Part shown: piece by piece, positions 5,009 through 57,973 of the stretch
Layout: every line of letters starts with the position of its first letter
Position numbering within the stretch: the stretch's first letter is position 1
DNA from: Gammaproteobacteria bacterium
GTDB lineage: Bacteria > Pseudomonadota > Gammaproteobacteria > HK1
Length of the DNA stretch: 64,000 bases
NCBI GenBank assembly: GCA_965221725.1
Contig: OZ244909.1
Location: forward strand, 2,629,925 to 2,693,924
Direction: 5' to 3'
Notes under the pieces: generated by a model
What the model saw: only the letters and a program-made list of their open reading frames with translations
Databases searched by the model: none
Told to the model about the DNA's origin: nothing
Translations under genes and position numbers: made by a program

Positions 5009-5056
5009 CGTGCCGGTTGTCGTCGAGTACGGTCCGACATGCAAGTCCCGCCGCCG

Positions 5057-5256
5057 CCATCGAAGCTCCAATACAGCTTCGCCATCTCCGAGGCGAGTCG
5101 CTCGACAGTCACGTTGCCGCCCTTGTCTCCTCCGCCGTGTTTGCCGATGAGGACAGGCTGTGGCTCGACATCCTTCATCCGCAGGTGCGGCGCCAGCACG
5201 AGCTTGACGAACTCCTCCTCGGTGCGTCCTTCCACCGATACGGCGAGACGAATCAC
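5057..5256 (-). pseudogene. DUF4276-family protein, N-terminal fragment only (~66 aa)
   Basis: GTG start with GGAGG RBS; VIRLAVSVEGRTEEEFVKLVLAPHL...GGNVTVERLASEMAKLYWSFD, then the family-like sequence stops abruptly. Confidence 0.7.
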
Positions 5257-7936: not shown

Positions 7937-7962
7937 CCGGCATTGTAGACAGAATGCCGGCC

Positions 7963-14018: not shown

Positions 14019-14231
14019 TCACCCCACCCGCGAATATGGATAGCTGTTCTTTATGTAGTAATTCAGAAACTGGCCCTTGGAGGATGCCTGCATGATCTGC
14101 TCATACATATGGTCAGGTACACCATAGTATTGGTACACGCGACCATTCAGAAATTCGACTTCCAACGTTTGCGCGCAAGTATCGTACCCAATCGAACTTA
14201 CATTCGATGATGCTACCGGACTCTTATTCAT
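14019..14231 (-). CDS. KTSC-domain protein
   Basis: MNKSPVASSNVSSIGYD...TLEVEFLNGRVYQYYGVP...SKGQFLN is a classic KTSC pattern. The ATG overlaps the herA stop region. Confidence 0.88.
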   Translation of the reverse strand: MNKSPVASSNVSSIGYDTCAQTLEVEFLNGRVYQYYGVPDHMYEQIMQASSKGQFLNYYIKNSYPYSRVG

Positions 14232-17314: not shown

Positions 17315-17352
17315 TTGTCGAATCCTCAATATGTCGTGGCGACATGCCGTGG

Positions 17353-17568
17353 CTACGCAACATCCGCGGCAAGCTGTCGAGTCTGTTCATCAAGGGTTCG
17401 AATCGCACCCTGGATGGCGTCAACCTCCCGTTCCTCGAAGAACGGCTCGCCGCACTGGCCGCAGACCCAGGCTGGTACGGCATCGAGCGCCAGGTGGTAT
17501 CCGTGCCGATCGACATGAAAGGGCACGGTCGAGCGTTTCATTACTCCTCTGCAGTGAAGGCATTCCAT
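17353..17568 (-). CDS. YgiT/MqsA-type zinc-finger protein (orphan antitoxin-like)
   Basis: CLHC...VPAWVCGQCGEPFF (two CxxC pairs), 71 aa; overlaps the pglX 3' end. Confidence 0.75.
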   Translation of the reverse strand: MECLHCRGVMKRSTVPFHVDRHGYHLALDAVPAWVCGQCGEPFFEEREVDAIQGAIRTLDEQTRQLAADVA

Positions 17569-41045: not shown

Positions 41046-42119
41046 TCATCTTCCGATGCCCGAAGCCGCTGCCTGCCCGACGCGGGGAAGACCACGAGCA
41101 AAAGCCGCGAAGAGGAGCTTCAGGGCCGAGTCCGAGCGCACCAGAGCGCTGGTGACGATAACGACGCCCTTTACGCTGGTGCGCGAGATCTTCACCTCCT
41201 GGCCGTTGCTGAAGTGCGGCGTGGCATGAATCCGGCGCAGCGTCAGAACTGCCATGCCCAGTGCCCACAGGCAGTGGCGGCGAATTCCCGTCTCGTGAGC
41301 AGGAATGAGCAAGGTATACCGCAGCGCGTTCGCAAGGTGCTGGCGCGCAACGGCCACCAGTTCGAAGAGTCCCTTCACGAACCTCGGATCCGCCTGACCC
41401 GGAGACAACGAACTCAAATCGAACCCGAAGGAGGAAAAGACGTCCCGCGGCAACCAGCAGACGCCACGTTCGTGATCGTCCCACATGTCCTTGAGTATGT
41501 TGGTCATCTGCAACCCCTGCCCGAAGGATGTGGCCAACGCAAGCATCTCCTCGCGTCGAGCGCGGATCTCATCGGAATAATCGCAGAACAGTTCCGTGAG
41601 CATTTCACCGACCACGCCGGCGACGTGGTAGCAGTAGCGATCCATCTCGGGAAGATCGCTCAGACCCTCCAGGCTTGCCTCCTGCTGGAATTCCGCCATC
41701 CCGCGTTTCATGGTGCGCACGCAGCGCTCCATGGCGGCGCGCTGTGCCGAAGAGAATCCGTGGGTGATCCTCACCACGCGGTCGATGTTCGCGACGAGAT
41801 CCCGCTCGCTGCGGGTTGTCGCTGGTGACAAGAGTGCGGTCAGCTCTCGCGCGAACGCTTCCACATCGTCTTCGTGACCTTCCACGATGGTGATGAAGCG
41901 CTGGAAGTATTCCTCTTTCAACCCCGGTGACAACGCGGGTTCGTCCTCGATGGTGTCGGCGATTCTGCAAAGCAGGTAGGCATTCGCTACCGCATCGCGT
42001 AACGGGTTTGGCAGTTGCGGGATGGTGAAGGCGAACGTGCGGGAGACACCCTGCAGGATGTCCGTCTGGTAGGCGAGATCCCGCCCATGCGACGCGGTGC
42101 AGGAAGTGGCATTGGCCAT
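41046..42119 (-). CDS. sqs: Squalene synthase (single-enzyme, farnesyl-diphosphate farnesyltransferase type)
   Basis: [39 protein letters not shown] and [12 protein letters not shown] (SQS signature); sterol-gene context. Start taken at MANATS. Confidence 0.85.
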
Positions 42120-42287
42120 GAGCTTTTCGTCGTGAGAGATGCTTTCCGGATTCCGAGGTGCGCGTGCCAGCGGCCTCCGCCGGAGGTTCTCGAATCCGGC
42201 CCCTTCCGGTGCGGGCAGACCGATGGTTTCACGCACGAAAGAATACAGTCAAGGCACAGCACCCGACAACACCGATCCTGGCGAGCG

Positions 42288-42316
42288 TTGACAGGTTCCG
42301 ACCGCATGGATAGGGT
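42288..42316 (+). promoter_or_regulatory. Candidate sigma70 promoter for the MMPL gene
   Basis: TTGACA (42288-42293)-17 bp-TAGGGT (42311-42316), 50 nt upstream of ATG 42366. Confidence 0.5.
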
Positions 42317-42365
42317 TCGCAGACCTCCGCCTTCGCGGAGACACCGATCGGGCGGATTCTGCGCC

Positions 42366-44681
42366 ATGTCATTGAAATCGGATTTTTTCGATCTGGTCGT
42401 AGGCCGGCACTGGTTGACGACATTCGCCACTCTGGTGGTGGTCGCGATCCTTGCGGCGGGGATGCAGTACCTGATCGTTGTCGATGTAGGCATCCGAAAT
42501 CACTTCAGTGGCGATGATCCGCATTTGGTCAAGCTGGAAAACTTCGAAGAAACCTATGCGGTATCCGACAGCGTCCTGGTCGTTGCCGCCCCACCGGACG
42601 ACACGGTTTTCACCCGCGAGACGTTGGGTGCAATCGAGCGATTGACAGAGGCGCTGTGGCAGACGCCCTATGCGACTCGTGTCGATTCGATCACCAACTA
42701 CTCGCATTCGGAAGGAAATGAAGAAGGCCTGGTAGTCGAACCGTTGGTCGACGATGCCGCCTTGCTTGATGATGATCAACTCGACCGGGTGCGAACGATT
42801 GCCCTCACCACACAGGATACGGCCGGGCGCTTCGTCTCTCTCGACGGGCGCCTGGCCGGGCTGATCGTCAGTCTCATACTTCCCGATGACGGCCGGGAGC
42901 AGAAAAAAGCCGAAGTGGTCGACGCTCTCTACGACCTCGTCGACGCGCAGAGCACAGCCAATCCCGAAATCGAATATCACATCTATGGCGAGTTGTTGCT
43001 TGATCAAACCATTCGGGAGGCGCTGAATGAGGACATGTCAGTCCTTGCGCCGATTGCGTTTGCGACGATGATGCTGGTTGCCATTCTGGTGCTGCGTTCG
43101 GTATGGGGCGTTCTGGGAATTCTGGTGATGTTGATCGCCGTGATGATATCCGGTTTCGGATTTGCCGGTTGGTTCGGATTGAAATTCTACGGCGAGAGTG
43201 GCGCGGCACTATTCGTGCTGATGGCGATTGCCGTCGCCCATTCAGTCCATCTGATTCAGGGGGTGATGAACGGAATGCGTAGCGGGATGGAACGCAAGGC
43301 TGCGACGATTCATTCGCTGCAGATCAATGCCCGCCCCATCTTTCTGACTTCCGTGACCACCGCAATCGGTTTTCTGAGTCTGAATTTCTCGGAGATGCCG
43401 CCTTTCCGGGTGATGGGCAACATCGTTGCTTTTGGCGCCATGTGCGCATTCGTCTATGCGGTCACGCTTCTGCCGGCTCTGCTGTCGATGATGCCCATGC
43501 GGGCACCAGCCATGAAAAAGGAGGGAGTCGAGTTCTTAGAGCATCTGGGAAATTTCGTGACTTCCAACGGCACCATCCTGCTCTGGATTTTTGCCATTTT
43601 GTCGGTGGTCAGCGCAATCGGGGTTTCGAGAATCGAGCTGGACGACAACAATCTCCAGTTGCTGGAAGAAAGCTACGAACTGCGTCAGTCTGCTGATTTC
43701 ATCAGCGAAAATTTTTCAGGACTGGATACATTCGAATATTCGCTGAGTTCCGGGCGCGAAGGGGGAATTACCGACGTCTCGTACCTGAATCAGGTCGATG
43801 CATTCGCTGATTGGCTCCGCGACCAACCAGAGGTTTCCCACGTCACTGCGGTGACCGATGTGCTGAAGCGGTTGAATCGGAATCTGAACGGCGATGTGGA
43901 CGGCTCCTATATCCTCCCGGAAAGCTCGGATCTTGCGGCGCAATATCTGCTTCTCTACGAGTTTTCTCTCCCGGTGGGACTCGATCTGAACAATCTCATC
44001 GACTTTGACCGTTCAGCGACTCGCATGACGGTCGTGGTTGAAGCGATGTCGGTTAGAGAACAAATCGAATTCGACGAACGAGCCTCCGCCTGGTTGCGGG
44101 AGAACGCACCACAGATCGGAACCGGAGCAACCGGAGTGACCATCGTCAGTGCCTATTCGGTGATGAGGAATATCGTCAAGATGCTGATTGGCACCGTCAT
44201 TGCGATGTCAATTGTCTCGCTCATTCTCGTTTTTGTTTTCAAGAGCGTGTGGCTCGGACTCCTGAGCTTGATACCGAACTTCCTGCCGGCCATCATGGCG
44301 ATGGGGGTTTGGGGATACACTGTGGGAACCGTCAGTGTCGCAGCGTCGATTGTGACCGCGATCGCATTCGGCATCATCGTGGATGACACCATTCACTTGT
44401 TGTCCAAGTACCTGAGATCACGTGGTGAGGGCAAGTCACCCACGGAGGCAATCGTGCCGACCTTCAAGCTCGTCGGGAGGCCGTTGTTGACCACCACCTT
44501 GATTTTCGCGCTGGGGTTTCTGGTATTCGGCGCGTCGGGGCTTGCGACCAATCAGACCCTTGGGGTGCTGGTGGGGCTCACGGTCGTCATCGCGCTGATG
44601 GCGGACTTCCTCCTCTTTCCCCCCCTGCTGGTAGCCCTTGACAAGACCAAAGCATTGGTGACTCGCACAGCGACGCATTAG
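42366..44681 (+). CDS. MMPL-family RND transporter (candidate sterol exporter)
   Basis: Two repeats of TM + periplasmic domain + 5 TM; motifs TTAIGFLSL and GIIVDDTIH. Divergent from sqs, convergent with the DHCR24-like gene. Confidence 0.9.
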   Translation: MSLKSDFFDLVVGRHWLTTFATLVVVAILAAGMQYLIVVDVGIRNHFSGDDPHLVKLENFEETYAVSDSVLVVAAPPDDTVFTRETLGAIERLTEALWQTPYATRVDSITNYSHSEGNEEGLVVEPLVDDAALLDDDQLDRVRTIALTTQDTAGRFVSLDGRLAGLIVSLILPDDGREQKKAEVVDALYDLVDAQSTANPEIEYHIYGELLLDQTIREALNEDMSVLAPIAFATMMLVAILVLRSVWGVLGILVMLIAVMISGFGFAGWFGLKFYGESGAALFVLMAIAVAHSVHLIQGVMNGMRSGMERKAATIHSLQINARPIFLTSVTTAIGFLSLNFSEMPPFRVMGNIVAFGAMCAFVYAVTLLPALLSMMPMRAPAMKKEGVEFLEHLGNFVTSNGTILLWIFAILSVVSAIGVSRIELDDNNLQLLEESYELRQSADFISENFSGLDTFEYSLSSGREGGITDVSYLNQVDAFADWLRDQPEVSHVTAVTDVLKRLNRNLNGDVDGSYILPESSDLAAQYLLLYEFSLPVGLDLNNLIDFDRSATRMTVVVEAMSVREQIEFDERASAWLRENAPQIGTGATGVTIVSAYSVMRNIVKMLIGTVIAMSIVSLILVFVFKSVWLGLLSLIPNFLPAIMAMGVWGYTVGTVSVAASIVTAIAFGIIVDDTIHLLSKYLRSRGEGKSPTEAIVPTFKLVGRPLLTTTLIFALGFLVFGASGLATNQTLGVLVGLTVVIALMADFLLFPPLLVALDKTKALVTRTATH

Positions 44682-46345
44682 TCGTCGGCTTTCTCTCTGA
44701 TTTCAGCGATCAACCAACTTTCCGGCATGACCTTGTCGTAAACCTCGGGGAAAGCATTTTCCGCCTCGTACTTGCGCCGCATGGCGCGGTAGTTGCCGTG
44801 TTCGAAGGTCTGTTCGAATTCATCGCGCGTCATGCAGAGATCGGCATAGAGCATCAAGTAGCCGCCACATTCACGTACGAACTGCTCAAGACGTCGAGTT
44901 GCCGGCACTTGATGGTAGTGACCAGTGGCGGCGCTTGGCGGAATACCGTAGATGCCGAGATCGACGAACATTTGATGGGGTGCACCCTTGGCTGGGTTGC
45001 GAAGAAAACCCTCATTGGCTCCGTGATCGAACAGCCTGACCGGACAGACCCATAGCGGATGAATGTCGAAGAGTTCGTCGCTGATGTGGATCGAGTCGGC
45101 GAGGCATTCGATAGGTATCAAGATATCGTGCGCGACACGATTTGCAAAAGCCTTTCGTCGCACATCCGGCGTCTGCGTCAGCTTCATGAGCGAGATCTTG
45201 GGTGCGCCCATCCATGCCCACAGATAGCGGTACCACACAGAATTGGCGAAGCCGATGAGATCCTTGATCTGAAAAAAAACGGAGGGTGTATGACGGTGGA
45301 AGTAATGGCGAGCTGGAATGTAGTCGGTGAACTTTCCAATTTCTAGACTTTGCGCAGCATGGCTGTAAAACCAGGGTTTATGAAACCTGTTGATGTGATT
45401 GACGCGTACTCCGGGGGGAGGGGAGGCGAATTCACCCTTCAGGATGACGCCCGAGTTTTCGGAAAATATCAATCCCTCGATAAAGCGGGGAGCGTTGGGA
45501 TCGGCGGTAAGTTCTTCCAGTCGGGCACAAAAACCTTCCAGAGAGTGAAATGGCTCGTAATTGAGCTTGACGTGCGGTTGAATTGGCACAATGCGTAACT
45601 CGACCGCTACGAGGAACCCCAACGTACCATGCGACCAGGGTAGCGCGTGGAACAGATCGGCGTTTTCTTCACGCGTGGCTCGAATCAGTTCGCCATTGGC
45701 AACGACGACCTCGAATGCCTCGACCGTTTCGTGCAGAAAACCTTCGCGATGGCTTGTGGTTTCGATGCCGACACCCATGCAGAGTCCGCCCAGTGTCAGG
45801 TCGTCCATCTCCGCCAGAACGGTGAGCGCGTATCCTCTGGGGACGAGAAAATGCGTGATATCCCCCATTGTCACCATCGGTTCGGCGCGCACGATGCCCC
45901 GTACTTCATCCACTTCCAGAACATTGCGGAGATCGATGTGCACCTGATGCATGCTTTCCTTAAAGTCCGGGTTGCGCGGTGTCATCGACTTCCAGGGCTT
46001 GCGTGCCGTGCACATGCGCTTTCCACTGGCATAACCGTCCCGGACTTGCGACTGAATCGCGCGTACGGCGGCGGCATGCCTGGCGTCGGTGTTCCGGAAA
46101 GTGCGATAGAACCACTTGCCAAGATCTTCAATCTTTTGGTAGACGAAGCTGGCCGGCACCGCGAAGCCCGCAATGACGAACTCACGGTGGTGGAACATGA
46201 AATCGGTGAAGGACTTCGGGACCTTCATCACATCAATGTACTCCCTGTCGAAATCTGCTGTTTTCCCCGACTCTGAGTCAGCCCGGAAAACCGCTAATCC
46301 CGAATACAGGGAGGTCTTGTCGCACGGGGAAGTTAATTTTTTCAA
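44678..46345 (-). CDS. Delta24-sterol reductase-like FAD oxidoreductase (DHCR24/DWF1 family)
   Basis: RMCTARKPW, VRAEPMVTMG, LTLGGLCMGVGIETTSH, FHALPWSHGTLGFL, YFHRHTPSVF, PLWVCP and AFPEVYDKV. Start is TTG 46345 (TTGA overlap) or ATG 46228. Confidence 0.88.
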   Translation of the reverse strand: MKKLTSPCDKTSLYSGLAVFRADSESGKTADFDREYIDVMKVPKSFTDFMFHHREFVIAGFAVPASFVYQKIEDLGKWFYRTFRNTDARHAAAVRAIQSQVRDGYASGKRMCTARKPWKSMTPRNPDFKESMHQVHIDLRNVLEVDEVRGIVRAEPMVTMGDITHFLVPRGYALTVLAEMDDLTLGGLCMGVGIETTSHREGFLHETVEAFEVVVANGELIRATREENADLFHALPWSHGTLGFLVAVELRIVPIQPHVKLNYEPFHSLEGFCARLEELTADPNAPRFIEGLIFSENSGVILKGEFASPPPGVRVNHINRFHKPWFYSHAAQSLEIGKFTDYIPARHYFHRHTPSVFFQIKDLIGFANSVWYRYLWAWMGAPKISLMKLTQTPDVRRKAFANRVAHDILIPIECLADSIHISDELFDIHPLWVCPVRLFDHGANEGFLRNPAKGAPHQMFVDLGIYGIPPSAATGHYHQVPATRRLEQFVRECGGYLMLYADLCMTRDEFEQTFEHGNYRAMRRKYEAENAFPEVYDKVMPESWLIAEIREKADD

Positions 46346-48360
46346 GCAGGCAGTTCGTGCAACCGATTCGCAATATGGACTTTCAGCTTTTCGGACACCG
46401 ACAAGGTAGGAAAAGGACTGATTTTCAGTTTGTAGTTGCCGGGGATCGGAGAAAAATCAAAATAATAAGCAATCATCAGCATGGTAACGATCATCTGCAT
46501 GTTCATCCAATCGTACCCCACGCACATGTGGGTACCCAGCCCATACGGGGCGTATCCGTAACTCCGGTGCTCCTTGCGTGGCAACAGATAACGATCGATA
46601 TCGAATTTGAAAGGATCCGGAAAACTGTCACTCATGTAATGTGCTGCGGTTTGCATGATGTGTACCCGTTCCCCTAGCGGCAGTGCGTAGTCTTCCACCA
46701 CGCAGGAATTCGCCACATTTCGAACCTGCATGCTGACAACGGGATACATTCGCAGGCACTCCATGAGAAAACGAAGTGTCACGTCATAGTTTTCCGGGAT
46801 GAACTTCTCCCTGTCGGGATTGCCGTTATCGAAAATTGCGGTTGCCTCCTCCCGAATTCTCGCCGCAAGCTCCGGGTGTCTGGCCATCTCGAAAAGTGCA
46901 AATCCGAGGAGATCACCGACGTAGATACTTTGAAGTATTGGTGCGGCTGCCAGCATGAAGGGGAGGTTCTGCTCCGGCAGAAATTGCGGGTCACTGCTGT
47001 GCAGGCTGATGAGATCGTCCGCCAATTCTCGGACTGCTCCCGCCCGCTGGAAGGGCGTATGGCTTTGCTCTATTCGTCGCACGAAGGTACCGAGAAGTCC
47101 GAAACGTTTCTTCATGGCTGGAGTGCGGGCCATGAATTTCGGCATGATATGTCCGACATAACAGTTGGATGCCGTTTCCTTCCATTTCACCAATTCCTCG
47201 AAGATGTCCTGCGTGTCCGTGCTGACGGTAATCATGGTCATTTGCATATTGATCATCAGCCGAGTATCGCGCTTTACATCGATCTCCGAGTTATTTTGCC
47301 ACTTTCGGTTCGACATGAACTGTCGGGTCAGCCGACATATGTCGTCCAGTCTTTCGTTGAATTTGTCCGTTGAGTAGACGCCTCTCATCACTTTGCGAAG
47401 TCGGAAGTGATCAGCACCATCCAGGGACGTGATCAAACCTTGTGCGCCACAGGCCTGCTCCAGCTCACGAAAATAATTCCCGGAAGTCAGGTACATTCGA
47501 GCATTTCTATGTATCCATCGATTCGCCTTTTCTCCCGCCACAAAAGTCATTGGTTTCTGAAATGGTAGTCCTATCTGGAAAACCGGGCCGTATTGCTCGG
47601 TTATACTTGCAAATAACGCGGGAATGTTGCCATTCCAGAGATGCCGGTTCGACAGAAATTTCTTGATGGAAACTCTGGGAATTTTCTTTCTCAGAGGTGT
47701 GCTTTGTAAAGTAGGCGCGATAATTGTCTGTTCGACGCCGGAAGCAATTGTTCGATTAATCAACTCTACTTTGCAAATCCACTCGATTCGATCTTCCGTT
47801 TCCTTGTCCAGATCAAAAATAAAGCGAACGACATCACATGCATTCAAAAGACCGATAATAAGTGAATCTCGCGGATTGGGTATGATATCCGCGAAGAGCA
47901 CTTCTCCAATTCTTTCCTTGATGTACAGACCTGCGGGATCCTGGATGGCGTATTCCCTTAGTTCCGCATGCCAATCGGAGTAGTTCATTGTGTAGAACCC
48001 TCCATCATGGTGCTGCAGAATTCCCATTCGGACCAAGCGCTGCAATGAGGTATCAATGATGGTTTCCGAATGAACCGCAAGCCGCTCTATCCAGTAACGC
48101 GCTTCCTGCGAACCGGAATGAGACGCAATCTCTTCCAGGCACAGATCCAGAACCGAATCGCCTGTTTTGGTCGAATCGATCAGGAAAAGAGATTTTTCAT
48201 CCGTATCAATGCGTGATTTCAGGGAGAGGTCCGCCAGAACTGCCCCGATGAAGGCACAGTTCAGGGTCCAGCCTTCTACTTGATAGAAATATCCGGTCTG
48301 ATCGTTGAGAAGCATCACAACGAGTTCCTCCGGAACATTCAGCGCATACTTCGAGGTCAT
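46342..48360 (-). CDS. GPP34 (GOLPH3-like) domain - cytochrome P450 fusion protein
   Basis: The N-terminal ~205 aa (EELVVMLLNDQTG...GAVLADLSLKSRIDTD...TKTGDSVLD...WIERL...LQRLVRMGIL) fit the GPP34 pattern. The C-terminal P450 has ExxR (ECLR), DPFKFDIDR and heme motif YGLGTHMCVG. Confidence 0.8.
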   Translation of the reverse strand: MTSKYALNVPEELVVMLLNDQTGYFYQVEGWTLNCAFIGAVLADLSLKSRIDTDEKSLFLIDSTKTGDSVLDLCLEEIASHSGSQEARYWIERLAVHSETIIDTSLQRLVRMGILQHHDGGFYTMNYSDWHAELREYAIQDPAGLYIKERIGEVLFADIIPNPRDSLIIGLLNACDVVRFIFDLDKETEDRIEWICKVELINRTIASGVEQTIIAPTLQSTPLRKKIPRVSIKKFLSNRHLWNGNIPALFASITEQYGPVFQIGLPFQKPMTFVAGEKANRWIHRNARMYLTSGNYFRELEQACGAQGLITSLDGADHFRLRKVMRGVYSTDKFNERLDDICRLTRQFMSNRKWQNNSEIDVKRDTRLMINMQMTMITVSTDTQDIFEELVKWKETASNCYVGHIMPKFMARTPAMKKRFGLLGTFVRRIEQSHTPFQRAGAVRELADDLISLHSSDPQFLPEQNLPFMLAAAPILQSIYVGDLLGFALFEMARHPELAARIREEATAIFDNGNPDREKFIPENYDVTLRFLMECLRMYPVVSMQVRNVANSCVVEDYALPLGERVHIMQTAAHYMSDSFPDPFKFDIDRYLLPRKEHRSYGYAPYGLGTHMCVGYDWMNMQMIVTMLMIAYYFDFSPIPGNYKLKISPFPTLSVSEKLKVHIANRLHELPA

Positions 48361-48420: not shown

Positions 48421-51400
48421 TCAGACGGAAGCCAGCTCGATCCGGGGTGGTATCGTGTCTGTGGTGCTACCGGTGTTAGCGAGATTCTCCATTCGGCTCC
48501 GGCGGCGTTGCTCGTAGAGACCAAGAGCGTGCAGAGGAAAGTACTGCCGATAGAGGACATAGTCCAGAAGTGCGGTTCGGAAGAACACCCCTGCCATGTC
48601 CTGCTTGGGCCATGTTCCGTCGGGGCGTTGCATGTCGAGCAGGAAGTGGGCGCCGTGCGAAATCGCGGTCCAGTTGGATTCTCCCGCCTCGATGAGCGCG
48701 ATCAGCGCCCATGCGGTCTGGATCACCTGGCTTTCCTCGTGCTGAACGTATCGGCCGGTCAGGCATCCGCTGTGGTGCTCGCCCCATCCGCCGTCTTCCC
48801 GCTGGCGCCCCAGCAGCCAGTGACAGGCCGAACGAAGCGCCGGATCGCCGGGCTGGACCCCGGCGGCGAGGAGACCTCTGATCCCGAAGAGGGTGCCGTA
48901 AATGAACTGAATTCCCCATACGCCGCGCCACGATCCGTCTCTCTTCTGGGTTCGACGAAGCCAGACGGCAGCCCGAGAGACGGCTCTGGAGATAATATCC
49001 GTCATTATATCATCCGCTATCTCCGGCACATGCTCTCGACAAGCCGAGAGTGCCGCCAAGCAGGACCCCGTACATTCGACGAAGGAGTGCTCGGTCATCG
49101 ATTCGCCGAACATTTCGGCCGGGTTCAGCCACTCCAGACCGACGAGCGAGCGTCGTGCCTCGTAGCTGCCAAAGCCGCCATCGCGGTTTTGGCGGCGCAA
49201 CATGAACCTGACCGCTTCGCTCAGCGCGGCCGGATTCGATCTACCGCGTCCGGCGGCGACGATTCCGAGCACCGCCTCTGCGGTACAGTCGCTCACCGGC
49301 CACCCATGCCATCCGCCGGGGAAACACCAGCCGCCTTTGGGATCGGACCGATAGGCATCGCGGAATCCGTCGAAGCTGGTGCCGATCTGCTCTCTGAGCA
49401 GGAATTCGGCGCCGCGCTCAAGGGCATCCCGAGCCCCGTCGAACGTGGGAACCTCAGCCAGCGCCTGCAGCGCGAACCCGCTGTCCCATGAGGCACTTCT
49501 CGCTCCGGTGACACGCGCCCCCTGCTCCTCATCCTCCCAGATCCAGCCGTCCATTCGCGCCAGTGCCTGGTCGAGGTCGGCATCGTCCGGATCGCGCAGC
49601 CACAGGGCAAGCATGTTGAGAAGACCGCTGACTGGAGAGATGCTCGTATGATCGGTGGTCCGCAGCTCCCATTTGATCTGTCGGAGGATCTCTTCGGTGC
49701 ATCGGGCGCGCAAGCGCTCGCCGTGGAAGCGGTCTAACAGCCGCGCGAATCCGTACCCCGCCTTGAGCCACACACTCGGCCGCGCGAACAGATCCGCCTC
49801 CCGCAGGCACCCGCGGGCAGCGGAGAAATCCGCGCTGGCGAATCCTCGGGGGAACAGCTCTTCGCGTAGCGACGCGATCAAGGGGGTGACGGGCGCCTGG
49901 AACCGGTGCGCATAGATCACCGCCATCGCCATGTAGATGAGCCGCGTATGGCAGTACCAGTTCGAGGGGTGCAAGGGGACCCAGCGCGGCAGGCCCCACA
50001 GTTCCGGCAGGATGGCGTTGACTCCACGCCAGTCGTAGAGGTTGAGGAGCGCGAGCCAGAATTTCCCCCAGCTCGGAATCCCGATAATTCCTTCGGCCTG
50101 TATGAATCGAAGGGCCGGCCCGACCAGAGGGTCGTCTCGTTCGACGCCAAGCGACCGTGCCGCGACGTACACCAGCGCGGTGACGAAGAGCTGGGGCGGC
50201 GAGTGCTCGTGCATGCCCCACGCTCCCCCTTCGAGCCGACTCTGTTCGAAGAAGCGAAGCACATGCCGACGCCGGGTGGGTTCGAGCGGACGGCCGATGA
50301 TATGGTGCAGCAGCACATATTGCGCGGTCAGCATGGGACACCAGACCATCTCGCCCTCCCAGCCTCCGTCCTTGCTCTGAAGACTCAGAAGGCGATCGGC
50401 CGCGCTGCGCAATGCCGGACCGGCATCGGGCGATTCAACCTCCTTCGGCCGGTCGGACCTGGAGGCAACTCTCTCCGAGGCCATGGAGTGCAGAAACGCG
50501 CGGGCAAGATTGTACCGTACGCTCTCTTCCCTTTCCTTGCGCCCGGCTCTCACCTTGCGCAATTGCAGGGCCCCGCACATGAACCACCAGATACGGACGG
50601 TGAGCGCACGGAAGACGGTACTGAACCGATGCAAGGTGAGGCGGGGGGGACGGGACAGTGAAACTTCCCTGGCCAGTGCCCGGATCGCGGTTCCGGAAAA
50701 AGCGAGACTCATGCCGGCCACGGATCGGTCTTCGCATGCGAGGATCCGCGTGGTTCGATCGCGGTACCGAGCACTTGTCCGCCACCCCATATAGACGGCG
50801 TGTCGTAGTGCGTGCGCCTCGGCTCGATAATCGGCGAAGACTTCGTAGAGCCCCATGGCGAGCAACTCCGGCATGTGGGTATCCCGGAGCCGCCGGTTGG
50901 TGAAGTCGCGAAAGCTCTCGCTCTCGGCGAGGGCAAGCGCATCGCCGAAACCCAGGGTCATGCCGACCGCAGTCATGGGATGGTAGTGCCCGGCCGCGTC
51001 ACCGATCAGTACTCGATGCGAGTTCCCGTAGGCAGCGCGCGGCCGGAGTTGATTGGCCGCAAAGTGGAACTGCCTTGCCCGAATTGCTTCGACGAACTTC
51101 GATCTGAGCGCCTCCGGCATGAGATCGGCATAGGATTCCGTCAGAAAACCGACCCGGTCCCGTTTTGCCCAGCAATCCAACGGAACATCGATGATGATTC
51201 GGACGCAGCCATCCGCCACACTGTACGCGAGCACCGGGCCTGGTCCGCCGAGCAGTACATGGCCCTGGCCCTCGAAGGGCAAGTTCCCCCCCGTCAACGT
51301 GACCCCGACCATTCGCGAACAGTGAATGGGGTCTGTCGACAGCCCGAGCGATCGACGCACGGTCGAAGCCCGGCCGTCGGCGCCGACGATTCGCGCCGCG

Positions 51401-51873
51401 TTCAGGGTGTGCAAGGCGCCGTTGCAGCTATAGGTCAGCCGCTGGTCTTCAACCGCGGTGACCCGTGCCCTGGTGACAAAATCTATCGCCGCCTCGTCTT
51501 CGATGGCTTCCCGCAACTTCGAGACGAGCAACGTATGCTCGCATACCAGACCCTGGGAGCCTTTGGGGTAGGGAAGTGCGATCGGTTCCGATCCGTCTTC
51601 CGGGAACACCACGAATCCATTGCCGGCGGCGCTGCGGGGCAAGGTGTCGAGATCGATCCCGAGGTTACGCAGTATCCGCACGGCCGGCGGATGCAGCCAT
51701 TCGCCCGCCATGCGCTCGGCCGCCTTGGGGTTCGCCTCCAGCAGAGCGACGCGAGCGCCTCTTTGCGCGTGGGCCAGTGCACACACGTTCCCCACCGGCC
51801 CCGCGCCGACGATGACCACGTCGTAACACCGCGAAGCGGCGCCGTTCTCGGGAAGATGTCCGGCCGTGTTCAA
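48421..51873 (-). CDS. osc: Squalene epoxidase - oxidosqualene cyclase fusion (~1150 aa)
   Basis: FAD domain: VIVGAGPVG, GEWLHP and GDAAGHYHPMTAVGM. Cyclase: QW repeats (QSKDGGW, QNRDGGF, QKRDGSW, QREDGGWGE, QRPDGTW) and the OSC catalytic DCTAE (49276-49290). True start taken as TTG 51873 overlapping the cyp51 TGA. Confidence 0.92.
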   Translation of the reverse strand: MNTAGHLPENGAASRCYDVVIVGAGPVGNVCALAHAQRGARVALLEANPKAAERMAGEWLHPPAVRILRNLGIDLDTLPRSAAGNGFVVFPEDGSEPIALPYPKGSQGLVCEHTLLVSKLREAIEDEAAIDFVTRARVTAVEDQRLTYSCNGALHTLNAARIVGADGRASTVRRSLGLSTDPIHCSRMVGVTLTGGNLPFEGQGHVLLGGPGPVLAYSVADGCVRIIIDVPLDCWAKRDRVGFLTESYADLMPEALRSKFVEAIRARQFHFAANQLRPRAAYGNSHRVLIGDAAGHYHPMTAVGMTLGFGDALALAESESFRDFTNRRLRDTHMPELLAMGLYEVFADYRAEAHALRHAVYMGWRTSARYRDRTTRILACEDRSVAGMSLAFSGTAIRALAREVSLSRPPRLTLHRFSTVFRALTVRIWWFMCGALQLRKVRAGRKEREESVRYNLARAFLHSMASERVASRSDRPKEVESPDAGPALRSAADRLLSLQSKDGGWEGEMVWCPMLTAQYVLLHHIIGRPLEPTRRRHVLRFFEQSRLEGGAWGMHEHSPPQLFVTALVYVAARSLGVERDDPLVGPALRFIQAEGIIGIPSWGKFWLALLNLYDWRGVNAILPELWGLPRWVPLHPSNWYCHTRLIYMAMAVIYAHRFQAPVTPLIASLREELFPRGFASADFSAARGCLREADLFARPSVWLKAGYGFARLLDRFHGERLRARCTEEILRQIKWELRTTDHTSISPVSGLLNMLALWLRDPDDADLDQALARMDGWIWEDEEQGARVTGARSASWDSGFALQALAEVPTFDGARDALERGAEFLLREQIGTSFDGFRDAYRSDPKGGWCFPGGWHGWPVSDCTAEAVLGIVAAGRGRSNPAALSEAVRFMLRRQNRDGGFGSYEARRSLVGLEWLNPAEMFGESMTEHSFVECTGSCLAALSACREHVPEIADDIMTDIISRAVSRAAVWLRRTQKRDGSWRGVWGIQFIYGTLFGIRGLLAAGVQPGDPALRSACHWLLGRQREDGGWGEHHSGCLTGRYVQHEESQVIQTAWALIALIEAGESNWTAISHGAHFLLDMQRPDGTWPKQDMAGVFFRTALLDYVLYRQYFPLHALGLYEQRRRSRMENLANTGSTTDTIPPRIELASV

Positions 51874-53279
51874 CTGAATACACTCGGTTGCGCGCGGCGA
51901 CGGTAGGACACCCGGCACGGTGTCACTGGTCCTGTTACCCAGGTCCCGTAGTTCGGGGCAGGAAACTCCACCATCGGTTCGAAATCGAAGCGGTCGAGCA
52001 AGACCGTCCAGATCGCCTTGAGTTGCATCACGGCAAATTTCTCCCCCATGCACCGATGCTTCCCCCCGCCAAAGCCGATCAGGGTGTAGTGGTGCTGCTT
52101 GCCCTCGCTCCGGGGGGGGGCGAACCGCTCCGGATCGAAGCGTTCCGGATCGGCAAACACGTCGGACAGGCGATGCGACACCGCCGGAGAGATCATGGCC
52201 AGGGTCCCGGCCGGCACGGTGTGACCCGCATACTGCAACGATCGACGCACCTTGCGGACCAGCACGATCAGCGGCGGGTGCAGGCGCTCGCACTCGCGCA
52301 CCGTGCATTCGAGTGCCGTCTGCTTCTTGAGGCTCGCGAGACTCATGGCGCCTTCCTCTGCGTAGACCTCACGCATTTCGCCGCGGATCCGGGCTATCCA
52401 GTCCGGCGCACGGAACATCTCGAGCCCCATCCAGCTCGCAAGCACGGCGCTGGTATGCTGGCCGGCAAACAGCACTGTCAGCAAAAGCCCGATAATCTCG
52501 TCTTCGCTCAAGGCCCGACCATCCTTGTAACGGGCCTGCATGAGTGCCTGCATGAAATCTTCGGCTACGGTACCGGCCTCCCGGCGCCTCCTGATGATTC
52601 CGCCGAGGATCTCCGCAATCTTGCGTCGGGCCCGGTCACGTTTTCGATGCGCCGGGATAGGCAACCTCGGGAAGAAGAACCCGAGGAGGTTGATGCCCTC
52701 CTGTAGATCGTGATAGGCCTCGGCGAACCCCGAGTCCACCTGATCGCGGACTTCCTGGCCAAGCAGGCTGCGGCTGGCGATGTTGACGGTGAGCTTGTTC
52801 AGCGCCACCGGCAGGTCGATGGTCCCCTCCTCTCCGAGCGCATCGGCAAACCGACTGGCTTCGTCGTGCATGATGTGAGCATAGTTGCGCATCGGCGCGT
52901 CTCGCAGCGCCGGATACAGCAATGCCAACTGCTCCGCCATGACCTCGGGCGCGACATCGTAGGCGACACCACGTCCGAAGACGGGCACCGTGAACTGGTA
53001 GACGGCCCTGGCATCAAGCTGGTCCGCCGGCGCCCGGAAATAGCAATCGTGGGCCTCCAGCCCCGCAAACAGCACAAACCGGCGGGGGCCGAGCCTGAAG
53101 CTGACAAGCTCACCGTGTTCATGCTGGCAACGGTCGAGCATGGCTACCGGATCCTTTTGAAACTCCGGCAGGTGGCCGAGCAACGGCCAGCCACCGGAGA
53201 GTTCCGGAATCGATTTCCCCGTCGAGGAGGCGGACTGCGCTGAGCGCAGAGGCACTGCGATGTCGGACCGATTTGCCAT
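51870..53279 (-). CDS. cyp51: Sterol 14alpha-demethylase
   Basis: YQFTVPVFGRGVAYD (SRS1), LFAGQHTS (CYP51 I-helix), ECERLHPP and GFGGGKHRCMGE. Start taken at MANRSD. Confidence 0.93.
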   Translation of the reverse strand: MANRSDIAVPLRSAQSASSTGKSIPELSGGWPLLGHLPEFQKDPVAMLDRCQHEHGELVSFRLGPRRFVLFAGLEAHDCYFRAPADQLDARAVYQFTVPVFGRGVAYDVAPEVMAEQLALLYPALRDAPMRNYAHIMHDEASRFADALGEEGTIDLPVALNKLTVNIASRSLLGQEVRDQVDSGFAEAYHDLQEGINLLGFFFPRLPIPAHRKRDRARRKIAEILGGIIRRRREAGTVAEDFMQALMQARYKDGRALSEDEIIGLLLTVLFAGQHTSAVLASWMGLEMFRAPDWIARIRGEMREVYAEEGAMSLASLKKQTALECTVRECERLHPPLIVLVRKVRRSLQYAGHTVPAGTLAMISPAVSHRLSDVFADPERFDPERFAPPRSEGKQHHYTLIGFGGGKHRCMGEKFAVMQLKAIWTVLLDRFDFEPMVEFPAPNYGTWVTGPVTPCRVSYRRRAQPSVFS

Positions 53280-53287
53280 CTCTGTTC

Positions 53288-54400
53288 TCAATAGACAAAG
53301 GGGACCAGCGACCAGGGCACGCGCTTTCGGTAGCGCCCCCACAGCTCCCCGTACTTGGCGCGGCAGCGCCGCTCATCACGGCGCGCACGATGCCACAACA
53401 AACTTGCAAGCCACGCCGGCAACAGGAAGGGGATCCAGGACGCAAAACTGGTGGTCAGCACGAACGCGAGGTAGATGCAGATCTCGCCCGTGTAGTTGAG
53501 ATGTCGTGCGATCCCCCAGAACCCGGATACAAGCAGGCGCCCGTCGAGAGCTTGGGCGGGTTTGCCCCAGATCGTGATGGACGGGTCACGCTTGAAGCGA
53601 TGCTTTTGCCCGTTGGCGCCTCGGAACAACCAGAAGCCGAGCACGTACAGGAGCATGATCGCGACGGCCGCGAAAGGGCTCAACGGGGGACCGGATGCGT
53701 CGACCAGCCACCAGCCAGCGATGCAGTAGAAGAAGGGCACGAGCACGTAATCACCCCAGACGAGCATCCACCCGAAACGCTCGCTGACGATGTCCCAGGT
53801 ATGGATCATTCCGCCCTCGAACAGGAAGTAATTCAGTATGTACGCTATCGTCAGGAGCTGGTATAGGGCCATCGCCAGGGTCAGGTGGCCGTAGGTTTCG
53901 TATTGCACCACCGCGAAAGAAGCATTGAACAATGCCAGCCCGATGAGGGACGGGCGGTAGCTGAACAGCTTGAGATCGACCCCGAACCAGGCAGGGTTGA
54001 GTTCCACGCCGTAGAAGGCCCCGCGCCAGAATCCCGGCGGAGATTCGGTCTGCTCTCGGAGCTGCTTGCGGGTGCCTTGCCAATACAGCCAGCCGGAAAT
54101 CGCGAACGCGAACAGGTTTGCAGCCACGAAGAGCGCGAAGAAATGCGTATACAGGGACGACAGGGAGAACACGTCCAAGACCTGTGCAATGCCTGCCACC
54201 AGCGCGGTGAGCAGCAGCAGCGTCAGGCCGTTGAGCTTGTAGGTGACCGATATTCCGCCGAGGTCCGGCCCCTTGACCCGGCGCCCCGGCAGGAGCGCCG
54301 AGCCCACGAACAAGGCCCCGATGAAGACGGCTGTCATCACCGCCGCCTCGATCAGCAGCCCGCCCGAAAGGGGGGGGATCGGCAGAGGCAGATTAGGCAT
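53288..54400 (-). CDS. ERG4/ERG24-family sterol reductase (probably Delta14-reductase)
   Basis: YKLNG, GVELNP, DIVSERFGWMLVWGD, VPFFY, ANGQKHRFK, LLVSGFWGIARHLNYTGE and HRARRDERRCRAKYG. Confidence 0.9.
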   Translation of the reverse strand: MPNLPLPIPPLSGGLLIEAAVMTAVFIGALFVGSALLPGRRVKGPDLGGISVTYKLNGLTLLLLTALVAGIAQVLDVFSLSSLYTHFFALFVAANLFAFAISGWLYWQGTRKQLREQTESPPGFWRGAFYGVELNPAWFGVDLKLFSYRPSLIGLALFNASFAVVQYETYGHLTLAMALYQLLTIAYILNYFLFEGGMIHTWDIVSERFGWMLVWGDYVLVPFFYCIAGWWLVDASGPPLSPFAAVAIMLLYVLGFWLFRGANGQKHRFKRDPSITIWGKPAQALDGRLLVSGFWGIARHLNYTGEICIYLAFVLTTSFASWIPFLLPAWLASLLWHRARRDERRCRAKYGELWGRYRKRVPWSLVPFVY

Positions 54401-54410
54401 CGGTGTTTCC

Positions 54411-55532
54411 TTATGCGACCTCTGCCACCGCCGGTTCGGGGCTCGGCACCGCGCTCTTCTTCTCCCTGTCCAGATACTCCTGCCACTTGCGCACCGTCAC
54501 ATGCTGAAACGCAGGCACCACCCGGTTGAATTCGAGGGTACGGGCGTCCCAGTGCTGCTCATACCCCTCCTGTTCGGCTTCCAGCGCGAACCCGTCCTCG
54601 CAGAGCAGCGGACCGATGAGCACCCGGTTGGAGATCCTCATCACCACGTCCATTGCGAACCGGGGGATATGTATCGGCACCAGCGGGATCTTCAGGGACT
54701 TGAAATAGAACAGAAAGAATGCCCGCGTGGTGCGCTCGTTGATGGGCAGGACGAAGAGCCAGTGCTTGATCGCCTCATCGGTGTTCGACCACTGGTAGGG
54801 ATATTCGTAGCAGAGCTTCATCGAATTGGTGTCGATTCGGTTGCGATCGACGAACAATCCGGAAATGCGGCCGCGACCGACGCTCGTGTCGTAATCGACA
54901 TGCACGTTGTCGCCGATCGTCTCGCATCTCGTGAGCTGGGCGCCTTCGAACGGACGGTAGCGGCGGTGCAGCCAGGCGTGACTGAAGTCGCTGACGTTGT
55001 CGATCACCATCGAGTGGTGGGCCGACCAAGTGAAATTCAGTGGTACACAGGCCCACCGACCGGGACCTTCAAGCTCGGGAATCTCGGGAATACGGCGTAT
55101 TTCGGCGAGTTCCGGATTCCCGGGAAACATCCAGACCAGTCCGTAGCGCACTTTCACGGGATAGGTTCGGATGGAGACGTCCGGCAAGCCTCGCTCGGGG
55201 AGTTCGTGTGCGGCTTCGGCCAGCTTTCCGTCCGGACCGTACTTCCATCCGTGGTAGGCGCATACGAGCCGGCAGCCCTCTACCGCGCCGATTGAAAGCT
55301 TTAGCTGGCGATGTGCGCAGCGATTGTCCATGGCGTGAAACGAACCATCCGTGGCCCGAAACAGCGCAATCGAGTGCTTCCAGAAAATGACTTCGACGAC
55401 GGTCCCCGGCTTCATGTTGCGCACTTCCTCGACCGCATACCAGTAGTCGGGATCCATACCCGTGGCACGCACCTTCTGGCGTAGGTTGCTGGCTTCCTCG
55501 AAGCCGGGCGGACGCGATGATACGGGGGTCAT
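54411..55532 (-). CDS. sdmA: Rieske-type sterol C4-methyl oxygenase (SdmA-like)
   Basis: Rieske CAH...CAYHGW, mononuclear Fe DNVSDFSHAWLH...ED, and YPYQ...HWLFVLP..ERTTRAFF. Resembles Methylococcus SdmA as recalled; paired with an SdmB-like gene. Confidence 0.82.
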   Translation of the reverse strand: MTPVSSRPPGFEEASNLRQKVRATGMDPDYWYAVEEVRNMKPGTVVEVIFWKHSIALFRATDGSFHAMDNRCAHRQLKLSIGAVEGCRLVCAYHGWKYGPDGKLAEAAHELPERGLPDVSIRTYPVKVRYGLVWMFPGNPELAEIRRIPEIPELEGPGRWACVPLNFTWSAHHSMVIDNVSDFSHAWLHRRYRPFEGAQLTRCETIGDNVHVDYDTSVGRGRISGLFVDRNRIDTNSMKLCYEYPYQWSNTDEAIKHWLFVLPINERTTRAFFLFYFKSLKIPLVPIHIPRFAMDVVMRISNRVLIGPLLCEDGFALEAEQEGYEQHWDARTLEFNRVVPAFQHVTVRKWQEYLDREKKSAVPSPEPAVAEVA

Positions 55533-56683
55533 GACGCACCTCCATCGGCTGTCATGTGTGGATGAGAGTCCGGCGCGGCATCCTCCGCCCGAGCTTTGCC
55601 GTTCGCACGGGGGAGGGGCTTCTTTGCCCGCGGATTGGTGATCGCCTTGCGCTCATGATAGTGGAACGCATACGCCTCGTGCACGGCGGCACGGATGGTC
55701 GTCGGCTGGTAGCCGAGTTCCCGTTTCGCCTTGTCCAGGTTGGCGTGACGGCACTTTTGCAGGAGCCGGATGGCGCCTGGTGTGAGTCGCTGGGGAAAGT
55801 CCGGGTGGAACCGGCTGAGATAGAAACTCGCCGCCTCCGAAAAGACATACATCAGGCCGGCTGGCATCCGCCGCCGAGGCCGCGGTTGTCCGGAGACCTC
55901 CTCGTACAGGTTCAGCAGATCGGAGATGGTCTTGTATTCGGTGCTGAAAATATATTTTTCGCCGGATCGGCCACGGTGCATGCAAAGCACATGTCCCGCG
56001 ACGATGTCCCCGACGGCAACGAACTCGAAGCCGCCATCGACGTACGCACGCAGCTTCCCGTTCGTGTAGTCGCACAACGTCCTTCCAAGACGCGACGGAG
56101 AGAAATCCGCGCCTCCGACGACTGCGCAGCAGGTTGCGACGACGATATCCTGCCCCTTCGCTGCGGCATGCCAGCATTCGTGCTCGACGAGCGACTTGCT
56201 TCGCTCGTAGGGCATCGTGCGTTCCATTGGATAGAACGGCATCGTCTCGTTGCTGGGAGCGGAAGGATTGTCCGGATCGTAGCCGACGGCGCTGAACGAG
56301 CCGGTGACCACCACCCGTCCGGCGTCCACTTCCCGGGCCGCCAGCAGCACGTTGCGGGTGCCGAGGACGTTGCACTCGAAGATCTCGCGTTGATGAGCGC
56401 GATTGCCCTCGATCGTGGAGATCTTTGCCGCGACATGATAGACGCCCCGGCAGCCCTTGATTGCACTCCGGGTGGCGTCAAGGTCCCGGAGATCACCGAA
56501 GGCGCGCTCCACTTCCAGACCTTCCATCGCCTGATTGTTGCTCTCGGGCCTCAGCAGCACGCGCACGCGAATACCGTCGGCGAGCAGGCGACGCACGAGG
56601 TTGGCGCCCACATGTCCGGTCGCACCGGTCACGAAGACTGGGGGTTCGGCCGAGTGGTGGATCTTGTTCAGCTCTGATTTCAA
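55529..56683 (-). CDS. sdmB: NAD(P)-dependent SDR, sterol C4 decarboxylase/3-ketoreductase (SdmB-like)
   Basis: VTGATGHVGANLVR, GDLRD, YxxxK (YERSK) and SRLGRT...LRAYV.GGFEFV; ATGA overlap with sdmA. Confidence 0.8.
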   Translation of the reverse strand: MKSELNKIHHSAEPPVFVTGATGHVGANLVRRLLADGIRVRVLLRPESNNQAMEGLEVERAFGDLRDLDATRSAIKGCRGVYHVAAKISTIEGNRAHQREIFECNVLGTRNVLLAAREVDAGRVVVTGSFSAVGYDPDNPSAPSNETMPFYPMERTMPYERSKSLVEHECWHAAAKGQDIVVATCCAVVGGADFSPSRLGRTLCDYTNGKLRAYVDGGFEFVAVGDIVAGHVLCMHRGRSGEKYIFSTEYKTISDLLNLYEEVSGQPRPRRRMPAGLMYVFSEAASFYLSRFHPDFPQRLTPGAIRLLQKCRHANLDKAKRELGYQPTTIRAAVHEAYAFHYHERKAITNPRAKKPLPRANGKARAEDAAPDSHPHMTADGGAS

Positions 56684-56742: not shown

Positions 56743-57973
56743 CAGGGTGACCGCATATAAAGTCATTGTCCCATCAACAACTTATCTCGGAAGGCATCGT
56801 TCAGAGCGGCCCGGACTCTCTTGCGCCTATAGCTCATTTTCGTCTTCTCGCGCTTGAGTAGGTTCATCGCCATGTGACGAATCACCCCGATGTTGTGAGG
56901 CGCATTGCCTCGACGAATCCGGCTTGCGTCTTCGCGAAACGTCACGTCCAACCGCCAGTGCAACCCGTTCTCGATACTCCAATGTGAACGCACCGCCCGT
57001 TGAAACACCTTCACGTCATCAAGCGAGGTGATGTAGTAGCGCCGCTCAACACTGACACGCCCTCCACAATGACGTTCCGACTCCACCATTCCCATCGCTT
57101 TCAGTCCCTTCCACTTCCCGACACCCGACAACGCACCAAGGTCCGTGGACAAGAAATAGCTCCGGTGCTCAATCCGCCCGTGACCTTCGTCGCAAGTCGC
57201 CTCGTGCCCCATCTCCGAACCGCCAAAGTCGCACCGCTCCGCCGCCTCGAAATACGCCCGAACCTCGCGCTCCAATTCCGGCTGATTGCGCTTCAGCGCC
57301 AACACGTAATCCCCACCGCCTTTCTTGACCTGCTTCGCGATCGCGCGTTGGCACCCCATCGCATCCAGCGTCACGATACACCCCTTCAATTGAAGCTTCT
57401 CCAGCAACTCCGGCACCGCCACGATCTCGTTCGACTTCTCGTCGGTTTTCACCTGCCCAAGCACCACCCCATTGCGACACGCCCAGGCACTGACCATATG
57501 CAGCGCCTTCACCCCTCGCTTGCGATCATGGGTGCGTCGATGCGTCTTGCCATCGAGCGCAATGATCTCACCGTCGCTGAGCTTGACCACGTCCTCCATC
57601 CAACTGAGAAAGCACGCCTGAAACCCACTGACCGACAACGCCGAGATGATGCGGGCAATCGTGTCATCGACCGGGACCCCATTGGCCAGCGGGACATAAC
57701 GACGTAACCAGTCCAGCTTTGCGCGACCGAACTCCTCGATGTCGCACCAACCTTCGGCCCCACTGAGCACCGCGCACACGCACAGCACGATGACATCAAT
57801 CAACTCATGCTTCTTGTTCCGGTCGACGCGCGGGTCTTCCAACTTCGAGAAATGTTCGATCAGACCCTCGGGGGCACTGTTGTCCATTGCTGATCACGTT
57901 CCTCTCCTTGGCCAGAGTGGCATTAGATCACAGAATGCACTGATTTACATGGGATTTTAGTGATCTTGCCCTG
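56743..57973 (-). mobile_element. Complete ISAs1-family insertion sequence (1231 bp) with 10-bp target-site duplication
   Basis: Ends CAGGGTGACC... (56743) and ...TCTTGCCCTG (57973). Flanking direct repeat GTCCCTGCGT at 56733-56742 and 57974-57983. Confidence 0.95.
56763..57887 (-). CDS. ISAs1-family transposase (intact, 374 aa)
   Basis: HFSKLEDPR, IIALDGKT, DEKSNEI, IVTLDAMGCQ, VRSHWSIENGLHWRLDVTFRED. Confidence 0.96.
   Translation of the reverse strand: MDNSAPEGLIEHFSKLEDPRVDRNKKHELIDVIVLCVCAVLSGAEGWCDIEEFGRAKLDWLRRYVPLANGVPVDDTIARIISALSVSGFQACFLSWMEDVVKLSDGEIIALDGKTHRRTHDRKRGVKALHMVSAWACRNGVVLGQVKTDEKSNEIVAVPELLEKLQLKGCIVTLDAMGCQRAIAKQVKKGGGDYVLALKRNQPELEREVRAYFEAAERCDFGGSEMGHEATCDEGHGRIEHRSYFLSTDLGALSGVGKWKGLKAMGMVESERHCGGRVSVERRYYITSLDDVKVFQRAVRSHWSIENGLHWRLDVTFREDASRIRRGNAPHNIGVIRHMAMNLLKREKTKMSYRRKRVRAALNDAFRDKLLMGQ

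Follow-up and report, generated by a model that had tools for sequence, protein, structure and literature searches.

Sterol biosynthesis gene clusters have been described in bacterial symbionts of sponges. Kelly 2022 reported a cluster of ERG24, CYP51 and LSS, preceded by a gene named 'DFR' and a hypothetical gene, in 115 of 537 metagenome-assembled genomes (MAGs) from Ircinia representing ten phyla, with evidence of horizontal transfer and purifying selection (PMC9531527); omega for the LSS gene was 0.17, and the LSS alignment in that work is 3765 nt long, a length compatible with a fused gene. Brown 2023 found in Aplysina aerophoba a gene matching both ERG1 and ERG7 beside ERG11, ERG24 and sdmAB, placed sponge-metagenome oxidosqualene cyclases (OSCs) in Group 1, and trimmed 'fused SMO/OSC homologs' for tree building (PMC10070321). 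Here we analyze a 64,000-nt stretch of a gammaproteobacterial assembly (GCA_965221725.1, contig OZ244909.1, positions 2,629,925 to 2,693,924; hereafter the window), which carries at 48421-51873 on its minus strand a gene encoding a squalene epoxidase (SE) fused to an OSC. This kind of gene and its cluster are already published, and the window copy is an additional member. The encoded protein is most likely a bifunctional squalene-to-lanosterol enzyme with lanosterol as its main product.

Group I was called the 'only bacterial LAS' by Wei 2016, in whose work Val at position 453 (human OSC numbering, used throughout for active-site positions) tracked lanosterol in every tested bacterium. Lanosterol is also what the resurrected ancestor of Group I forms (Hoshino & Gaucher 2021, PMC8237579). 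Methylococcus and Gemmata, for which H449 and V453 are on record, have H449 yet make lanosterol, with 453 as the sole diagnostic position (Desmond & Gribaldo 2009, PMC2817430).

A genuine SE-OSC fusion

The SE-OSC gene is a single uninterrupted frame of 1150 codons lying within an enclosing open reading frame (ORF) at 48421 to 52308 on the minus strand. Its start codon, a TTG at 51873, shares bases with the TGA that ends the upstream P450 gene (TTGA) and is the sole in-frame start between that stop and the first Rossmann beta-strand. Its parts are as follows.

48421 to 51873, minus strand: SE-OSC fusion gene, 1150 aa, with full-length homologues at 63-90% identity
50491 to 51873, minus strand: squalene epoxidase domain, aa 1-461 (Pfam SE/FAD_binding_3, human SQLE alignment, AlphaFold2/Foldseek, motifs)
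50422 to 50490, minus strand: inter-domain linker, aa 462-484 (low model confidence, no secondary structure)
48478 to 50421, minus strand: OSC domain, aa 485-1132, of the bacterial Group I type; six QW-like motifs (Pfam, 1W6K, TIGR01787, Foldseek)
49288 to 49290, minus strand: codon of catalytic Asp862 (human D455) in VSDCTAE (alignment, motifs)
49294 to 49296, minus strand: codon of V860 (position 453; alignment)
49306 to 49308, minus strand: codon of H856 (position 449; alignment)

The epoxidase half matches Pfam FAD_binding_3 and SE at aa 17-360 (E 6e-23 and 5.5e-23), scores 81.8 bits against a cutoff of 20.1 for the SE-specific PF08491, and aligns with human SQLE (6C6N, aa 17-364, E 2.6e-25). 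The GxGxxG, DG and GD motifs of the family are present: a GAGPVG Rossmann motif at aa 23, ADGRASTVR at aa 165 and GDAAGHYHPMTAVGMT. C-terminal helices come next, at aa 385-461. In the cyclase half, SQHop_cyclase_N and _C cover aa 489-1121 (E 1.6e-51 and 1.6e-56), human OSC 1W6K matches aa 495-1123 (E 1.6e-126), and the TIGR01787 score of 504 bits exceeds the cutoff of that model. Residues 860-866 read VSDCTAE, the OSC motif, and not the DxDD of squalene-hopene cyclases. The partners of the catalytic Asp, C863 and C934, correspond to human C456 and C533 and are invariant in 81 sequences.

An AlphaFold2 model built from 39 homologues (mean predicted local distance difference test score, pLDDT, 78; predicted template modeling score 0.74) consists of two folded bodies separated by a disordered stretch at aa 462-478. 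That stretch has pLDDT below 50; the whole of aa 462-484 lacks secondary structure in the model and is weakly conserved in the homologue alignment. Foldseek placed the model with human SQLE (6C6R/6C6N, target-based TM-score, TMt, 0.82-0.83) and with human OSC 1W6K (TMt 0.78), the latter together with the SQHop domains identifying the beta-gamma double alpha/alpha-barrel fold of OSCs.

Relatives were scanned with one genome per species, giving 409 hits; all figures on related loci below refer to the best 80 of these, which are all MAGs at 63-90% identity. The same fused ORF is present in 80 of the 80, and in independent public runs the contigs that span the domain junction show zero differences (depth ~246x in run X1). 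Given the intact frame, the domain matches, the two-body model and the junction-spanning contigs, the fusion is genuine, as the initial annotation had proposed from the sequence alone.

Active-site residues follow the bacterial Group I pattern

The cyclase was mapped onto human OSC by ungapped or near-ungapped HMMER alignment and by MAFFT. Several positions differ from the human enzyme: Y98 is replaced by M509, with WEGEMVWCPML in place of GDYGGPLFL; G100 is Trp; L229 is Trp and W230 is Y640; T381 is A791, and one residue is missing at 383; C449 is H856; I524 is Ser; and N697 is F1098. Retained are V453 (V860), D455 (D862), C456 and C533, the deprotonation pair H232 (H642) and Y503 (Y904), and the aromatic cation-stabilizing residues W387, F444, W581, Y587, F696 and Y704.

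Every residue that the initial annotation had read from the letters is present in the alignment: the HGWPVSDCTAE motif with V453 and H449, the altered and shorter loop at 381, the change of N697 to Phe, and an N-terminal motif other than YGGP. Its shifted 'WYCH' was right as to the residues, W229 and Y230, and wrong as to the shift, since the alignment there is ungapped and the change is L229W/W230Y; an insertion or deletion at this site is ruled out on the same ground. Its statement that W230 and N697 are among the positions altered in the Eudoraea cyclase agrees with a preprint in which the determinants of Eudoraea adriatica eudoraenol synthase are W230S, H232Y, Y503V (printed as 521 in the text) and N697Y (PMC12324236). 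In our own alignment, the Eudoraea cluster P0189 has exactly S230/Y232/V503/Y697, which validates the column mapping.

The positions that differ from human OSC are shared across relatives. M98, W100, Y230, A381, the deletion at 383, H449, V453, S524 and F697 are invariant in all 81 fused sequences (the window plus the 80 loci, from species-representative genomes), as are all catalytic and cation-stabilizing residues. A cyclase-domain search over 1.84 billion cluster representatives (50%-identity clusters) found ~25 clusters that share M/V98-x-W100-C/N101, Y230, H232, T233, A381, R382, the deletion at 383, H449, V453, Y503, S/C524 and F697. Clusters P0121, P0124 and P0126-P0129 of these are fused, and many others are stand-alone cyclases of 620-690 aa. 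A second search, started from a stand-alone signature protein, recovered the signature in Nannocystis radixulma, Fischerella sp., Nannocystaceae and fused Sandaracinaceae proteins.

In a neighbor-joining tree (without bootstrap), the cyclases fall into two clades, one with the human, plant and other Y98-G-G-P/W230/N697 enzymes together with that of Eudoraea, and one with all signature-bearing sequences, in which the fused forms are concentrated in a single subclade. In the same tree the window cyclase falls together with sequences of Nannocystis, Fischerella and Myxococcota and outside the clade of eukaryotes and Eudoraea. It has V453, not I453, and retains H232 and Y503, as expected of Group I, and the signature-bearing clade matches the published bacterial Group 1/OSC1. 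Judged by this distribution, the residues that look odd beside human OSC are the normal signature of the bacterial Group I clade. The suggestion in the initial annotation that the active site is divergent for its kind is thus not upheld, as the same residues are invariant in the fused family and clade-wide in Group I.

Two observations on the clade as a whole arose from this comparison. Among the Group I sequences in the tree, the cyclases P0143, P0156, P0163 and P0208 have altered residues at 230, 232 and 503, and they may have non-sterol products; P0156 (Streptomyces luteireticuli) has L230/W232/L503 and retains D455. In addition, Tyr98 of human OSC is credited with enforcing the B-ring boat, while the Group I clade, without Tyr98 (M/V98 plus Trp100; here aa 509-512, window 50338-50349), is still reported to make lanosterol.

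The sterol operon

The SE-OSC gene is the last of a five-gene block on one strand, SdmB-SdmA-ERG24-CYP51-SE/OSC, with overlapping or abutting ORFs. The four genes upstream of it are as follows.

51870 to 53342, minus strand: CYP51 sterol 14-alpha-demethylase, directly upstream (E 4.8e-107 to Methylococcus CYP51 6MCW)
53288 to 54400, minus strand: ERG24-type sterol C-14 reductase (Pfam ERG4_ERG24, E 7e-73; synteny)
54411 to 55532, minus strand: SdmA-like Rieske 4-beta-methylsterol monooxygenase (Pfam Rieske and VanA_C; NCBIfam SdmA)
55529 to 56683, minus strand: SdmB-like NAD(P)-dependent sterol C-4 decarboxylase/dehydrogenase (Pfam Epimerase/3Beta_HSD; NCBIfam SdmB)

The SdmA-like protein scores 403 bits against NCBIfam SdmA (E 1e-120, under the 600-bit cutoff) and the SdmB-like protein 299 bits against SdmB (E 8e-89, below cutoff); the SdmB-like gene is the 'DFR' of the published cluster description. 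The one-strand ERG24-CYP51-LSS arrangement, with DFR-like and 'hypothetical' genes before it, is that of the sponge-symbiont clusters. The five-gene order is kept, and CYP51 is syntenic, in most of the 80 related loci. From their overlap, CYP51 and SE-OSC are predicted to be translationally coupled.

The protein nearest to the SE-OSC, at 90% identity, is from a 'Thiotrichales' MAG. Several titles among the 80 loci name sponges explicitly (Spongia, Porisulfidus 'lac_sponge', Poriferihabitaceae), and part of the window sequence is shared with sponge-metagenome runs. Labels among the 80 include Alpha- and Gammaproteobacteria, Binatia, Nitrospirales, Acidimicrobiales, Opitutales, Vicinamibacterales, Bryobacterales and Thermodesulfobacteriota, at least eight phyla or classes in all. 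In the tree their fused genes branch very close together in one clade, a pattern that corresponds to the transfer between phyla previously reported for Ircinia symbionts.

Proposed function and its alternatives

Ordinary lanosterol is the most likely product because the residues that had seemed odd are the hallmark of the Group I lanosterol synthases; the assignment draws on clade relatives and operon context. In the proposed mechanism, a membrane-associated fused enzyme would carry squalene through two successive reactions to a protosterol, both of them on a single polypeptide. The FAD monooxygenase (aa 1-461) would epoxidize squalene at the membrane surface to (3S)-2,3-oxidosqualene, using O2 and a reductant; no reductase partner was identified in the window. 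Oxidosqualene would then pass over a short range to the cyclase (aa 485-1132), where Asp862, held by Cys863 and Cys934, is predicted to protonate the epoxide. The chain would fold to the protosteryl cation, and hydride and methyl shifts followed by deprotonation at C-8/C-9 (His642/Tyr904) would yield lanosterol. This product would feed the presumably co-transcribed CYP51, ERG24 and SdmA/SdmB enzymes to give 14-demethylated, C-4-demethylated sterols, and the host of the pathway would be an uncultured sponge-symbiont gammaproteobacterium. The fusion probably serves stoichiometric co-expression, short-range hydrophobic hand-over and co-transfer of both steps in horizontal transfer.

Several points weigh against this assignment. 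In the literature searched, no measured product was found for any fused SE-OSC or any member of the sponge-symbiont subclade; the search for biochemistry of fused SE-OSCs returned only a methods note and a supplementary table in Brown 2023. No RNA evidence of expression was found, the RNA runs searched being tiny and uninformative on transcription. The NCBIfam osq_cycl, SdmA and SdmB scores fall under their curated cutoffs. S524 and Q584 are found in the sponge and fused subclades, C524 and N584 in the majority of the remaining Group I enzymes, and we infer the full signature beyond H449/V453 in Gemmata and Methylococcus. Finally, Gemmata obscuriglobus, an OSC1/Group I member, is reported to make parkeol in addition to lanosterol.

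The last point bears on the alternative that survives best, though we consider it unlikely: a Gemmata-like multiproduct cyclase with less tightly directed deprotonation that releases substantial parkeol (delta-9(11)) beside lanosterol. The H/V combination is also that of Arabidopsis CAS1 I481V, which gives a mixture of cycloartenol, lanosterol and parkeol. Lanosterol and parkeol were likewise obtained in E. coli from one metagenomic bacterial cyclase (Table 1, PMC12324236). However, signature-bearing Nannocystis is reported with lanosterol and downstream delta-8 sterols without parkeol, as is another sterol-producing myxobacterium, Sandaracinus, considered here for its sterols alone (Table 3, PMC4919349); lanosterol is the reported product of the resurrected Group I ancestor, and H232 and Y503 are intact in the window enzyme. 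A related and similarly doubtful idea is that the fused sponge-symbiont enzymes, with S524/Q584 and intramolecular hand-over, release a substantial share of a protosterol other than lanosterol, such as parkeol. In that case, sponge holobionts would have in their symbiotic bacteria a source of unusual (e.g., delta-9(11) or 14-methyl) sterols.

The remaining alternatives fare much worse. The changes at 230 and 697, two of the four eudoraenol determinants, could redirect cyclization to a pentacyclic or other non-sterol skeleton, arborane-like or new, and F697 is aromatic as is Y697 of Eudoraea. This is highly improbable: H232Y and Y503V, two of the four changes in the Eudoraea-type set, are absent, and residue 230 is Tyr rather than Ser; the Eudoraea enzyme sits in the other clade (Y98-x-G-P); and Y230 and F697 are common to the cyclase of Nannocystis, a sterol-making genus. 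The operon speaks against a non-sterol product: the substrate of its enzymes is a 14-alpha-methyl, 4,4-dimethyl tetracyclic sterol, without which the adjoining CYP51, ERG24 and SdmAB would have nothing to act on. There is equally little chance of a cycloartenol synthase, as might be read from H449 and the plant-type W-P-x-S-D-C-T-A-E context (HGWPVSDCTAE is one residue off the plant motif): of the plant set Y381/H449/I453 the enzyme has A381 and V453, 453 is the one position that discriminates reliably, with V tracking lanosterol in every bacterium tested, and the cluster contains no cyclopropyl isomerase gene. Nothing except the unusual TTG start speaks for an artefact of assembly or annotation or for a pseudogene in decay, and these readings have next to no probability: the frame is intact, the difference-free junction contigs of independent runs and the same fused architecture at 80 independent loci rule out misassembly, and strong purifying selection is reported (omega 0.17, PMC9531527).

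The initial proposal of parkeol, an isomeric sterol or a new skeleton is not supported, since Group I enzymes are reported as lanosterol synthases and H449 with V453 is known in lanosterol makers. The parkeol idea keeps some life because of the product mixture of Gemmata. The proposal was to fall if near relatives carrying these residues turned out to be ordinary lanosterol synthases; this largely holds, though not by direct assay of a fused enzyme.

Other features of the window

Downstream of the SE-OSC gene lie three further genes.

46342 to 48360, minus strand: GPP34-P450 fusion, accessory, directly downstream of SE-OSC (Pfam GPP34 at aa 10-193, and p450)
44678 to 46345, minus strand: FAD_binding_4 oxidoreductase (Pfam FAD_binding_4), in 4 of the 80 related loci
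42015 to 44681, plus strand: HAE3/HpnN-like RND (MMPL) transporter (Pfam MMPL, Patched and Sterol-sensing; NCBIfam HAE3/HpnN-like)

The 672-aa GPP34-P450 protein joins an N-terminal GPP34/GOLPH3-like domain to a divergent P450 (~1e-16 to CYP51/CYP120 structures). It has at least 120 full-length homologues at 51-92% identity, all with both domains and named merely 'cytochrome P450'; a literature search on the fusion found no paper. The gene adjoins the sterol cluster in ~15 of the 80 related loci, usually with an RND transporter. The FAD_binding_4 gene probably encodes a DHCR24/DWF1-like sterol C-24 reductase, and we take its C-terminus, AFPEVYDKV, to resemble those proteins. The RND transporter gene is convergent with the sterol genes and is, from its domains, a candidate sterol exporter; its true start is probably downstream of the listed TTG at 42015.

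A DDE_Tnp_1 transposase gene (56763-57887, minus strand) abuts the upstream end of the sterol operon, and the GC fraction is 0.50-0.56 over the accessory genes (42-48 kb) against 0.65-0.70 across much of the remaining window. The adjoining transposase and the GC dip fit recent horizontal acquisition.

Farther away, a defence island at 1616-25536 contains a Type ISP restriction-modification enzyme (1616-5365), BREX BrxL (9337-11391) and an Eco57I/MmeI-type methylase (17541-21332), with a SIR2-like and HerA helicase pair (14224-17329) between BREX genes. Two large ORFs of this island (11388-13766 and 22090-25536) have no Pfam match. Cobalamin genes, CbiD (6848-7936, minus strand) and a CobB/CobQ-type amidotransferase (7879-9327, plus strand), lie between the Type ISP and BREX genes.

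Comparison with known systems

With regard to a divergent active site or a new product, the value of this analysis is that of a negative result: when a bacterial Group I cyclase is compared by human or plant numbering, substitutions common to its whole clade take on the look of innovations. The locus is one more well-preserved copy of a widely transferred cluster, with an uncommon module of GPP34-P450, DHCR24-like and RND genes. Sterol synthesis by sponge-symbiont bacteria bears on the reading of sterane biomarkers such as 24-isopropylcholestane and on who makes sterols in the sponge holobiont.

The closest described systems are the sponge-symbiont clusters (PMC9531527, PMC10070321), with which the window shares the order DFR (SdmB)-hypothetical (SdmA)-ERG24-CYP51-LSS, the fused SMO/OSC, and nearest relatives that include sponge MAGs. 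It differs in being at most 90% identical to any deposited sequence and in its 3' flank, which holds the GPP34-P450, DHCR24-like and RND genes where published clusters usually have SMT or FDFT1. Among the Group I synthases, signature and clade are shared with Nannocystis (43% identity over the cyclase domain) and H449/V453 with Gemmata and Methylococcus according to the literature; those enzymes are stand-alone with a separate SE gene, whereas the window cyclase is fused, and most have C524/N584 where it has S524/Q584.

Human lanosterol synthase (1W6K) has the same fold at ~35% identity but no fused epoxidase. Human SQLE (6C6N) shares the FAD-monooxygenase fold and the C-terminal helices at ~22% identity, while the window epoxidase is without the N-terminal regulatory domain and its C-terminus runs into the cyclase. 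The Eudoraea arborane synthase is, like the window enzyme, a bacterial OSC changed at 230 and 697; it carries S230/Y232/V503/Y697 on a Group II (Y98-x-G-P) background, in contrast to Y230/H232/Y503/F697 on a Group I background here.

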